Source of the DNA: Escherichia coli
GTDB taxonomy: Bacteria > Pseudomonadota > Gammaproteobacteria > Enterobacterales > Enterobacteriaceae
Length of the DNA: 64,000 nt
NCBI RefSeq assembly: GCF_003334355.1
Contig: NZ_QOWP01000003.1
Reading direction: 5' to 3' (one strand)
The position numbers and the translations under genes were made by a program. Numbering within the stretch: the first letter of the stretch is position 1; each line of letters begins with the position of its first letter. Shown here in pieces: positions 156-5,951 of this stretch. Below the pieces are notes generated by a model. It did not search any database. It was not told the DNA's origin and saw only the letters and a program-made list of their open reading frames with translations.

Positions 156-632
156 TTAATCCTGGCGATCGTCTTTATGATCAAGGCGGTCGCGCTCATC
201 ATCCTTTCGCTGGTACTCACCATCAAAAGTATTACCGCCACCGGTCCCGGCGCTAAAACCGCCGCCAGGCATGCGAGAAAAGCGCAAATGCGGCATCAAC
301 TTCACTGTCAGATGCTTTTGCACCGGCGGCAATAAAAGTAGAAGACCGAGGAAGTCGGTAAAAAAGCCCGGTAATAAAAGCAGCAAACCAGCAATGATCA
401 GCGAAACACTTTTAATCATCTCCGCCGCTGGGTTTTCACCCGCCGCCATTTTTTGCTGCATCAGCACGAAATTCTTAAAGCCCTGGTTACGTACCAGTGA
501 CATACCGATAACTGACGTGAATATAACCAGCACGAGGGTCAGCAATACCCCCAATACATGGGCAACCTGAATAAAGATTGAAATCTCAATATAGACATAA
601 AGGAAAATGGCAATAAAAGGTAACCAGCGCAA
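156..632 (-). CDS. fxsA: FxsA, inner-membrane protein (suppressor of F-plasmid exclusion of phage T7)
   Basis: ORF track 158 aa; hydrophobic N-terminal half and charged tail (RKDDERDRLDHKDDRQD); recognised as FxsA; divergent from aspA. Confidence 0.9.
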   Translation of the reverse strand: MRWLPFIAIFLYVYIEISIFIQVAHVLGVLLTLVLVIFTSVIGMSLVRNQGFKNFVLMQQKMAAGENPAAEMIKSVSLIIAGLLLLLPGFFTDFLGLLLLLPPVQKHLTVKLMPHLRFSRMPGGGFSAGTGGGNTFDGEYQRKDDERDRLDHKDDRQD

Positions 633-766
633 AGGTTTCTCCTGTAATAGCAGCCGGTTAACCTCGGCTACCTGAATGGGTTGCGAATCGCGTTTAGCTT
701 ATATTGTGGTCATTAGCAAAATTTCAAGATGTTTGCGCAACTATTTTTGGTAGTAATCCCAAAGCG

Positions 767-781
767 GTGATCTATTTCACA
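767..781. promoter_or_regulatory. Crp/Fnr-family-like site (GTGATCTATTTCACA) in aspA upstream region
   Basis: Matches TGTGA-N6-TCACA well (GTGA-tctatt-TCACA), about 190 nt upstream of aspA ATG; aspA is known to be CRP/FNR controlled. Coordinates approximate. Confidence 0.4.
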
Positions 782-968
782 AATTAATAATTAATGGGTA
801 AAAACCGACACTTAAAGTGATCCAGATTACGGTAGAAATCCTCAAGCAGCATATGATCTCGGGTATTCGGTCGATGCAGGGGATAATCGTCGGTCGAAAA
901 ACATTCGAAACCACATATATTCTGTGTGTTTAAAGCAAATCATTGGCAGCTTGAAAAAGAAGGTTCAC

Positions 969-2405
969 ATGTCAAACAACATTCGTATCGAAGAAGATCT
1001 GTTGGGTACCAGGGAAGTTCCAGCTGATGCCTACTATGGTGTTCACACTCTGAGAGCGATTGAAAACTTCTATATCAGCAACAACAAAATCAGTGATATT
1101 CCTGAATTTGTTCGCGGTATGGTAATGGTTAAAAAAGCCGCAGCTATGGCAAACAAAGAGCTGCAAACCATTCCTAAAAGTGTAGCGAATGCCATCATTG
1201 CCGCATGTGATGAAGTCCTGAACAACGGAAAATGCATGGATCAGTTCCCGGTAGACGTCTACCAGGGCGGCGCAGGTACTTCCGTAAACATGAACACCAA
1301 CGAAGTGCTGGCCAATATCGGTCTGGAACTGATGGGTCACCAAAAAGGTGAATATCAGTACCTGAACCCGAACGACCATGTTAACAAATGTCAGTCCACT
1401 AACGACGCCTACCCGACCGGTTTCCGTATCGCAGTTTACTCTTCCCTGATTAAGCTGGTAGATGCGATTAACCAACTGCGTGAAGGCTTTGAACGTAAAG
1501 CTGTCGAATTCCAGGACATCCTGAAAATGGGTCGTACCCAGCTGCAGGACGCAGTACCGATGACCCTCGGTCAGGAATTCCGCGCTTTCAGCATCCTGCT
1601 GAAAGAAGAAGTGAAAAACATCCAACGTACCGCTGAACTGCTGCTGGAAGTTAACCTTGGTGCAACAGCAATCGGTACTGGTCTGAACACGCCGAAAGAG
1701 TACTCTCCGCTGGCAGTGAAAAAACTGGCTGAAGTTACTGGCTTCCCATGCGTACCGGCTGAAGACCTGATCGAAGCGACCTCTGACTGCGGCGCTTATG
1801 TTATGGTTCACGGCGCGCTGAAACGCCTGGCTGTGAAGATGTCCAAAATCTGTAACGACCTGCGCTTGCTCTCTTCAGGCCCACGTGCCGGCCTGAACGA
1901 GATCAACCTGCCGGAACTGCAGGCGGGCTCTTCCATCATGCCAGCTAAAGTAAACCCGGTTGTTCCGGAAGTGGTTAACCAGGTATGCTTCAAAGTCATC
2001 GGTAACGACACCACTGTTACCATGGCAGCAGAAGCAGGTCAGCTGCAGTTGAACGTTATGGAGCCGGTCATTGGCCAGGCCATGTTCGAATCCGTTCACA
2101 TTCTGACCAACGCTTGCTACAACCTGCTGGAAAAATGCATTAACGGCATCACTGCTAACAAAGAAGTGTGCGAAGGTTACGTTTACAACTCTATCGGTAT
2201 CGTTACTTACCTGAACCCGTTCATCGGTCACCACAACGGTGACATCGTGGGTAAAATCTGTGCCGAAACCGGTAAGAGTGTACGTGAAGTCGTTCTGGAA
2301 CGCGGTCTGTTGACTGAAGCGGAACTTGACGATATTTTCTCCGTACAGAATCTGATGCACCCGGCTTACAAAGCAAAACGCTATACTGATGAAAGCGAAC
2401 AGTAA
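969..2405 (+). CDS. aspA: Aspartate ammonia-lyase (aspartase)
   Basis: ORF track 924..2405; recognised AspA N-terminus [24 protein letters not shown] begins at ATG 969 (codon 16 of the track ORF); 478 aa; fumarase/aspartase family motifs ([10 protein letters not shown]). Confidence 0.96.
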
Positions 2406-4278: not shown

Positions 4279-5951
4279 TCCTGCTACTTTGCAGCACTTC
4301 CGTTTTTGCCGGATTATTCGACGCGCCGGGACGTTCACAATTTGTCCCCGCGGATCAAGCCTTTGCTTTTGATTTTCAGCAAAACCAACATGACCTTAAT
4401 CTGACCTGGCAGATCAAAGACGGTTACTACCTCTACCGTAAACAGATCCGCATTACGCCGGAACACGCGAAAATTGCCGACGTGCAGCTGCCGCAAGGCG
4501 TCTGGCATGAAGATGAGTTTTACGGCAAAAGCGAGATTTACCGCGATCGGCTGACGCTTCCCGTCACCATCAACCAGGCGAGTGCGGGAGCGACGTTAAC
4601 TGTCACCTACCAGGGCTGTGCTGATGCCGGTTTCTGTTATCCGCCAGAAACCAAAACCGTTCCGTTAAGCGAAGTGGTCGCCAACAACGCAGCGCCACAG
4701 CCTGTGTCTGTTCCGCAGCAAGAGCAGCCCACCGCGCAATTGCCCTTTTCCGCACTCTGGGCGTTGTTGATCGGTATTGGTATCGCCTTTACGCCATGCG
4801 TGCTGCCAATGTACCCACTGATTTCTGGCATCGTGCTGGGTGGTAAACAGCGGCTCTCCACTGCCAGAGCATTGTTGCTGACCTTTATTTATGTGCAGGG
4901 GATGGCGCTGACCTACACGGCGCTGGGTCTGGTGGTTGCCGCCGCAGGGTTACAGTTCCAGGCGGCGCTACAGCACCCATACGTGCTCATTGGCCTCGCC
5001 ATCGTCTTTACCTTGCTGGCGATGTCAATGTTTGGCTTGTTTACCCTGCAACTCCCCTCTTCGCTGCAAACACGTCTCACGTTGATGAGCAATCGCCAAC
5101 AGGGCGGCTCACCTGGCGGTGTGTTTGTTATGGGGGCGATTGCCGGACTGATCTGTTCACCATGCACCACCGCACCGCTTAGCGCGATTCTGCTGTATAT
5201 CGCCCAAAGCGGGAACATGTGGCTGGGCGGCGGCACGCTTTATCTCTATGCGTTGGGCATGGGCCTGCCGCTGATGCTAATTACCGTCTTTGGTAACCGC
5301 TTGCTGCCGAAAAGCGGCCCGTGGATGGAACAAGTCAAAACCGCGTTTGGTTTTGTGATCCTCGCACTGCCGGTCTTCCTGCTGGAGCGAGTGATTGGTG
5401 ATGTATGGGGATTACGCTTGTGGTCGGCGCTGGGTGTCGCATTCTTTGGCTGGGCCTTTATCACCAGCCTACAGGCTAAACGCGGCTGGATGCGTATTGT
5501 GCAAATTATTCTGCTGGCAGCGGCATTGGTTAGCGTGCGCCCACTTCAGGATTGGGCATTTGGTGCGACGCATACCGCGCAAACTCAGACGCATCTCAAC
5601 TTTACACAAATCAAAACGGTAGATGAGTTAAATCAGGCGCTCGTTGAAGCCAAAGGCAAACCGGTGATGTTAGATCTTTATGCCGACTGGTGCGTCGCCT
5701 GTAAAGAGTTTGAGAAATACACCTTCAGCGACCCGCAGGTGCAAAAAGCGTTAGCAGACACGGTCTTACTTCAGGCCAACGTCACGGCCAACGACGCACA
5801 AGATGTGGCGCTGTTAAAGCATCTTAATGTCCTTGGCCTACCGACAATTCTCTTTTTTGACGGACAAGGCCAGGAGCATCCACAAGCACGCGTCACGGGC
5901 TTTATGGATGCTGAAACCTTCAGCGCACATTTGCGCGATCGCCAACCGTGA
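4254..5951 (+). CDS. dsbD: Thiol:disulfide interchange protein DsbD (DipZ)
   Basis: ORF track 4173..5951; recognised DsbD N-terminus [19 protein letters not shown] (signal peptide) at ATG 4254; 565 aa; periplasmic domain, 8 TM core, C-terminal thioredoxin-like domain with CVAC motif. Confidence 0.95.

Follow-up and report, generated by a model that had tools for sequence, protein, structure and literature searches.

We hold, at a probability of roughly 0.8, that of the two CRP-like motifs considered here, the one upstream of aspA (766–781) is the distal CRP activator site of that promoter, and the one upstream of dcuB (20507–20522) is a fortuitous half-site rather than a working CRP or FNR site. 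The sequence-only reading of the window (i.e. the whole 64,000-nucleotide stretch of DNA analysed) had taken a 10-mer common to both motifs as the mark of a shared regulatory module. Its observation was correct and it was right about CRP at aspA, but it was wrong about the module and about FNR, and most probably wrong about dcuB. Showing that the functional site at dcuB is not this look-alike keeps a false "regulon module" from spreading.

The window comes from the E. coli chromosome and corresponds, in reverse complement, to K-12 4.35–4.37 Mb; the genes flanking the motifs are E. coli fxsA/aspA and dcuR/dcuB according to the K-12 annotation. The stretch upstream of aspA is matched in all 5,426 of 5,426 complete E. 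coli genomes, and the one upstream of dcuB in 5,415 of the 5,426. Relative to K-12, the fxsA-aspA intergenic region of the window carries two SNPs (664 and 795), both outside the aspA CRP site, and the dcuB region has five differing positions, from 19926 (in the dcuR coding sequence) to 20420; within the two motifs themselves the number of differences is 0. The genes and motifs are located as follows.

156–632, minus strand: fxsA, divergent from aspA (K-12 annotation).
766–781, plus strand: distal CRP site of the aspA promoter, GGTGATCTATTTCACA, with its centre at 773.5, i.e. -90.5 from the aspA start.
969–2405, plus strand: aspA coding sequence (aspartate ammonia-lyase), with the ATG read at 969 and the end computed from the 1437-bp K-12 gene.
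20507–20522, plus strand: dcuB motif of the sequence-only reading, TGTGATCTATTCAGCA, with a CRP-like left half-site and a right half matching at 2/5.
20557–21897, plus strand: dcuB coding sequence, with the ATG at 20557.

Reading the window confirms GTGATCTATTTCACA at 767–781 upstream of aspA and TGTGATCTATTCAG at 20507–20520 upstream of dcuB, and the 10-mer GTGATCTATT that had been noted as identical in both is indeed present in two copies in the 64 kb, at 767–776 and 20508–20517, both on the plus strand. The expected number of copies in the window is 0.08, a post hoc figure that applies to this one 10-mer, and a total of 6,113 distinct canonical 10-mers recur somewhere in the window. When the aspA and dcuB intergenic regions are dinucleotide-shuffled, 43% of the pairs have at least one 10-mer in common, and the real pair has a second one, TGGGTAAAAA. 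We rejected TGGGTAAAAA as a meaningful shared element and attribute it to chance, as its aspA copy lies between the two CRP sites of that promoter in a stretch that is unconserved across 10 genera. The narrowest and most favourable fair test asks for any 10-mer of the aspA 16-mer in a shuffled dcuB intergenic region and gives P = 0.010; nominally this is significant, but 64 kb offer a reader many possible comparisons, and the value carries no correction for them.

The 10-mer GTGATCTATT represents a frequent variant of the CRP left half and does not mark C4-dicarboxylate genes. Its first eight bases, GTGATCTA, recur among CRP sites; specifically, GTGATC is found in 31 of 107 CRP ChIP-seq sites, GTGATCT in 18 of 107, and GTGATCTA in 5 of 107. 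The complete 10-mer is present in a primer annealing upstream of tnaA, an occurrence that we take to be the tna CRP site. It also lies within the RegulonDB lsrA CRP site at -71.5 (TGTGATCTATTCGTCG), which has 12 bases in common with the dcuB motif (TGTGATCTATTC), and within the SELEX CRP sites mscS/fbaA (TGTGATCTATTTGGCA) and yejG/bcr (GGTGATCTATTGCACA). The lsrA, mscS/fbaA, and yejG/bcr sites have the left half and spacer as in GTGATCTATT and are backed by binding or annotation, whereas the dcuB motif has neither; these genes, as well as tnaA, are unrelated to C4-dicarboxylates. Because it also occurs in CRP sites of unrelated genes, GTGATCTATT is not specific to C4-dicarboxylate metabolism.

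The 10-mer is also not kept as a unit at either locus. Among aspA orthologues (10 genera) it is complete in E. coli alone, and among dcuB orthologues (15 taxa) in E. coli, E. albertii, and Trabulsiella only. The spacer TCT (771–773) of the aspA site is identical in 4 of 10 genera, and because these bases vary freely in aspA orthologues, the 10-mer is not under selection as a unit. The common anaerobic C4-dicarboxylate module that had been proposed fails on both grounds, i.e. the presence of the 10-mer in unrelated CRP sites and its loss as a unit at both loci. The dcuB copy of GTGATCTATT is most likely a chance half-site, and the identity between the two motifs is best accounted for by the recurrence of GTGATCTA among CRP sites, with the two further T's a coincidence.

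Position-weight-matrix scans separate the two motifs clearly. The CRP matrix was derived from 106 sites of the ETEC H10407 ChIP-seq table (Haycocks 2015), with the aspA site left out; for the FNR matrix, 62 sites bound in ChIP (Myers 2013 Table S6) were used, without the dcuB site. The CRP matrix passes validation, as its three highest-scoring matches in the window are all known CRP boxes: 39009–39024, which is the proP CRP site TGTGAAGTTGATCACA of the Shimada list, and the two aspA boxes. The aspA 16-mer scores 14.5 on this matrix (rank 2 in the window; training median 13.07), a value reached with P ~0.0005 in composition-matched random sequences of 331 bp. The dcuB 16-mer, by contrast, scores 5.99 and ranks 57th in the window; sites of this quality occur at ~0.9 per kb, and the score is attained in 41% of random 571-bp look-alikes of intergenic sequence. 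On the FNR matrix the 62 bound sites score between 11.77 and 21.5, vs 5.89 for the aspA motif and -20.8 for the dcuB motif. The scans thus identify a strong CRP match at aspA and a chance-level one at dcuB, neither of them FNR-like. The sequence-only reading had also predicted that the degenerate right half-site at dcuB would give it a different CRP/FNR affinity; this stands for CRP, to which the dcuB motif is a far weaker match (8.5-bit difference), and not for FNR, as neither motif resembles an FNR site.

At aspA, what had been described as a good CRP-type match is a genuine CRP site, on which RegulonDB, ChIP-seq, SELEX-chip, score, and conservation agree. The RegulonDB entry for aspAp/aspA-dcuA ("aspA activator -90.5", ...AGCGGTGATCTATTTCACAAAT..., GGTGATCTATTTCACA; reproduced in the Shimada 2011 supplement) is identical in sequence and position to the motif in the window. 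In ETEC H10407, MEME picks out the same 16-mer beneath the CRP ChIP-seq peak between aspA and fxsA (Haycocks 2015), and SELEX-chip recovered the aspA region and gives two boxes there, GGTGATCTATTTCACA and AGTGATCCAGATTACG (Shimada 2011). The aspA promoter of Yersinia is shifted by CRP. The motif matches the TGTGA-N6-TCACA consensus at 9 of 10 positions, and its activating distance of -90.5 is consistent with the conserved -10 at 852–857; CRP sites in the Haycocks data cluster at about -40.5 and -92.5. As such, the aspA motif is an already catalogued, experimentally bound CRP activator site, i.e. known regulon content.

Conservation of this site was assessed in fxsA-aspA intergenic regions from nine further genera, which were gathered via FxsA homologues and aligned. 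The half-sites GGTGA and TCACA are identical in 10 of 10 genera, ATTTCACA is invariant throughout the alignment, and the distal site retains CRP scores of 11.4–14.5 across the 10 genera. Two further elements of this promoter are present in the window.

816–831, plus strand: proximal CRP/FNR-hybrid site AGTGATCCAGATTACG, with its centre at 823.5, i.e. -40.5; missed by the sequence-only reading.
852–857, plus strand: -10 hexamer TATGAT of aspAp, from the alignment of 10 genera.

The proximal site has a CRP score of 12.58 (rank 3 in the window) and an FNR score of 8.9, the latter at 817–830 and the best FNR-like match in the aspA intergenic region. It lies 50 bp from the distal site in 9 of 10 genera (49 in C. 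freundii), its sequence is identical in 5 of 10 genera, and its distance to the CATATGAT block is fixed across the alignment. Further downstream, CAGCATATGATC is conserved in the 10 genera except for one TATGAT substitution each in Leclercia (TATCAT) and Kosakonia (TATAAT). The RegulonDB position puts the aspA start site at 864 (773.5 + 90.5), which fits the TATGAT -10 hexamer. A clean phylogenetic footprint of both sites in the aspA promoter is one useful by-product of the analysis.

These positions suggest that the distal CRP site at -90.5 acts jointly with the hybrid site at -40.5 and the TATGAT hexamer. Judging from the geometry, a CRP dimer at -90.5 would reach the C-terminal domain of the RNA polymerase alpha subunit in a class I-type contact, and the hybrid site closer to the promoter would hold FNR under anaerobic conditions and/or CRP. 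The E. coli ansB promoter is reportedly organized in a similar way, with FNR at -41.5 and CRP at -91.5. It resembles aspA both in having a pair of CRP-family sites near -40 and -90, with 50 bp between them, and in being anaerobically induced, catabolite-sensitive, and part of the asparagine/aspartate-to-fumarate route. Unlike the site said to bind FNR at ansB, the proximal site of aspA scores higher for CRP than for FNR, and SELEX calls it a CRP box.

The situation differs at dcuB, where comparison with published sites and start sites places the functional elements away from the motif; at aspA, in the same comparison, the motif is the catalogued site. The relevant dcuB elements are the following.

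20071–20084, minus strand: dcuB FNR site, TTGATCTGGCACAA on the K-12 plus strand (Myers 2013 Table S6, 4,347,240).
20137–20208, plus strand: conserved upstream dcuB promoter block in the 15-taxon alignment, ending in the invariant TGTGTATTTTTA.
20423–20438, plus strand: RegulonDB dcuB-fumB CRP site, TGTGAGGTATTTGCTA, "activator -106.5", a very weak match.
20537–20538, plus strand: annotated proximal dcuB 5' end (dcuBp), inferred from -106.5 and located 19–20 nt before the ATG.

The RegulonDB CRP site and the Myers FNR site belong to the same intergenic region and to the same regulators that the sequence-only reading invoked, but they lie 84 and 437 bp upstream of the dcuB motif, respectively, and neither overlaps it. 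The FNR site is covered by a ChIP-seq peak (4,347,216/4,347,259; Myers 2013). Its sequence TTGATCTGGCACAA starts at 4,349,217 in NC_000913.3, and the offset of 1,977 leads to window positions 20071–20084, where the sequence under the peak reads TTGTGCCAGATCAA. This site scores 11.74 on the FNR matrix made without it (rank 3 in the window) and is conserved in Escherichia, Salmonella, Trabulsiella, and Citrobacter. With the catalogued CRP site and the ChIP-seq FNR site located elsewhere, and with CRP undetected at dcuB by ChIP-seq or SELEX-chip, the view of the dcuB motif as a CRP/FNR site is not borne out.

Two transcription starts have been published for dcuB, and both were placed in the window by arithmetic from published site positions, the proximal one being also listed in a 5'-RACE table. 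The upstream start, at ~20210 and just past TGTGTATTTTTA, follows from the FNR position of -132.5 given by Myers, whose start sites were drawn "from EcoCyc and Kim et al."; in the same study a sigma-70 ChIP-seq peak that rises under anaerobic conditions, at 4.34712e6, maps to ~20204 in the window. The conserved FNR site and the conserved block 20137–20208, both preceding 20210, support an upstream dcuB promoter. The 5'-RACE table (Mendoza-Vargas 2009 supplement) has a dcuB start at -19 from the ATG, with the -35 box AACGTGACT, and no matching start-site entry was found in the Ettwiller 2016 supplements. These elements suggest that dcuB is controlled through the FNR site at 20071–20084 and the conserved block at 20137–20208. 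A DcuR footprint is said to extend from -359 to -400 relative to the old start, and would presumably fall on this conserved block. Depending on which of the two published 5' ends is used (about -20 or about -347 from the ATG), the positions of FNR, of CRP, and of DcuR are read very differently.

The centre of the dcuB motif, 20514.5, is 42.5 bp before the ATG, -22.5 from the annotated start at 20537, and +304.5 from the upstream start at 20210. Neither -22.5 nor +304.5 is a position from which CRP or FNR activates. The motif spans -30 to -15, within the annotated proximal promoter core, and lies in the spacer of that promoter, a stretch that for transcripts from the upstream start is also long 5' leader. 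We also considered whether an overlooked sigma-70 promoter could bring the motif to -41.5 or -61.5, but a consensus scan of 19986–20560 found none. The placement at -41.5 is rejected because the start would then fall at the ATG, yet a GAGGG Shine-Dalgarno is kept in 15 of 15 taxa.

It is conceivable, though in our judgement unlikely, that cAMP-CRP does bind the dcuB motif with low affinity, at about -22.5, helped by contacts to polymerase or neighbouring proteins, and modulates dcuB, most plausibly through occlusion of the proximal promoter or a shift in the use of start sites. The left half of the motif matches TGTGA perfectly (5/5, vs 2/5 for the right half), the motif agrees with an idealised 16-base CRP palindrome, TGTGATCTAGATCACA, over its first 11 bases, and it outscores catalogued sites with the same left half, i.e. 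the SELEX site mscS/fbaA (5.04) and the annotated lsrA site at -71.5 (-3.15). Weak binding is compatible with the sequence, since these catalogued sites and 7 of the 106 sites bound in ChIP-seq score no higher than 5.99. Moreover, dcuB is catalogued as CRP-activated, yet the catalogued site scores only -4.69 on the CRP matrix, and if CRP acts directly the motif is among the two best intergenic candidates; the P = 0.010 of the targeted chance test points the same way. Against this, a score of 5.99 arises about once per kb by chance, and a site at -22.5 cannot activate, whereas the catalogue has CRP as an activator.

The binding data also argue against CRP at this motif. There is no dcuB entry among the 111 CRP targets of the ETEC ChIP-seq, for which a single growth condition was used, and SELEX-chip gives dcuB-fumB a "-", i.e. 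a database target that was unrecovered. CRP occupancy at dcuB is thus judged from these two datasets under their own conditions, and the region is H-NS-bound in the Myers data, which could mask CRP occupancy in vivo. Literature searches found no usable footprint data on dcuB or aspA.

Comparison of the dcuB leader across relatives bears on the same question. A genome scan with DcuB found 80 loci, with an alignable leader only in Escherichia, Salmonella, Citrobacter, Trabulsiella, and Intestinirhabdus. The aligned 16-mer keeps TGTGA and scores 8.3–10.0 in Salmonella, Trabulsiella, C. amalonaticus, C. sedlakii, and Intestinirhabdus, a retention that speaks for a low-affinity site. Within Escherichia, however, the score falls from 5.99 in E. 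coli to 0.26 in E. albertii and to -7.49 in E. whittamii and Escherichia sp. E1V33, where TGTGA has become TGCGT; the half-site is weakened in the first and destroyed in the latter two, with flanks almost unchanged. The C. freundii group has ACAGA in place of TGTGA and scores from -6.1 to -6.8. The conservation of individual columns departs from the CRP-informative positions, which likewise counts against a CRP site: T20507 and G20508 are each identical in 10 of 15 taxa and T20509 in 8 of 15, and positions of the right half are identical in anywhere from 4 to 13 of the 15. That cAMP-CRP acts on dcuB in E. coli solely through a weak remnant lying over the proximal core (-30 to -15), for example by damping the proximal promoter or shifting the start site, seems to us less probable still; if true, it would account for the poor match of the catalogued dcuB CRP site.

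A reading of the two motifs as CRP/FNR hybrids, through which the C4-dicarboxylate genes would respond jointly to oxygen and carbon, strikes us as very improbable. FNR ChIP peaks are indeed present near both aspA and dcuB, but the FNR scores of both motifs fall well below those of the bound sites (at least 11.77), and at dcuB the FNR site and its peak are ~400–450 bp upstream of the motif. At aspA, the FNR ChIP-seq summit (4,366,441 in U00096.2; Myers 2013) maps to ~878, nearer to 817–830, which is the more FNR-like sequence, than to 767–780, and the same study describes "distinct FNR and CRP sites" at this promoter. The occurrence of the 10-mer in CRP sites of unrelated genes also disagrees with a signal specific to C4-dicarboxylate genes.

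Just as hard to credit is an RNA element as the reason for the partial conservation at the dcuB motif, i.e. a UCYA/URGG hairpin immediately 5' of the Shine-Dalgarno. Covariation is seen in one column pair (U-A, C-G, U-G), and the 4-bp helix is paired in 87.5% of cells (11–46% when the partner is slid), but the helix has 4 pairs only, the observed score is reached by 22 of 500 shuffles, RNAalifold gives no consensus structure, and shuffled versions of the E. coli leader fold about as well as the real one (z = -0.57), which leaves this explanation unsupported.

Apart from the reading of the dcuB motif as a fortuitous half-site, the alignment yields, as a by-product, a lineage difference in dcuB-leader CRP sites between Escherichia and Salmonella/Citrobacter. 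Specifically, a strong CRP palindrome, absent from Escherichia, is located in an extra leader segment of Salmonella and the Citrobacter freundii group.

The published numbering for dcuB implies two different 5' ends, at 20210 vs 20537 in the window. The upstream end lies ~347 nt before the ATG and is based on the FNR site position of -132.5 (Myers 2013), a peak in the sigma-70 ChIP-seq data and a -10-like block that does not vary, while the downstream end, 19-20 nt before the ATG, is based on the RegulonDB position of -106.5 together with 5' RACE. It is only relative to the upstream 5' end (20210) that the FNR site (20071-20084) and the conserved block (20137-20208) are found at a sensible activator distance.

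An extra leader segment that carries a strong CRP palindrome is present ~324-420 bp before the dcuB ATG in Salmonella (loci L007 and L008), the C. freundii group (L009, L014, L015, L017, and L018), and Intestinirhabdus (L023). Examples of these palindromes include TGTGATCGTGATCACA (score 20.1) and CGTGATAATGATCACA (16.8). The segment is absent from Escherichia, Trabulsiella, C. amalonaticus, and C. sedlakii, and none of the Escherichia examined has a site scoring at least 9 inside the 900 bp upstream of dcuB.

The dcuR-dcuB intergenic region is split by IS1A in E. coli KMi029 (search hit H9, NZ_CP147109.1), a river-water isolate. A mouse-gut evolution study (PMC5094792) reports that insertions of IS elements into the regulatory region of dcuB were adaptive.

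Upstream of aspA, the distal CRP site (766-781, -90.5) is accompanied by a second, proximal site:

816-831 (-40.5): CRP/FNR-hybrid site AGTGATCCAGATTACG, exactly 50 bp downstream of the distal site

This proximal site scores 12.58 with the CRP matrix and 8.9 with the FNR matrix and may be used by either protein in vivo; among 10 genera it is kept with a fixed spacing to the -10. Conservation around the distal site runs ~10 bp past the TCACA half-site, which exceeds what a CRP site requires. Specifically, in the right flank (782-793, AATTAATAATTA) the pattern A-T-AATAA-T is nearly invariant among the 10 genera, and this flank may hold a site for another regulator, e.g. NarL or DcuR.

The aspA row of Table S3 in Shimada 2011 gives two CRP boxes, at 4.3665e6 and 4.36655e6, in an order reversed relative to their real positions and on opposite strands, apparently a minor inconsistency within the source table.

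At 39009-39024 lies the top CRP match in the window, TGTGATCAACTTCACA, with a score of 17.2. Read on the opposite strand it is TGTGAAGTTGATCACA, the proP CRP site that Shimada 2011 lists at 4.32831e6, and it serves as a positive control for the CRP matrix. The top FNR-matrix match (4369-4382, TTGATTTTCAGCAA; score 14.27) is not listed as ChIP-bound in part 1 of the two-part predicted-site table of Myers 2013. It falls within the dsbD coding region, based on coordinates converted from the K-12 annotation, and is probably a chance intragenic match.
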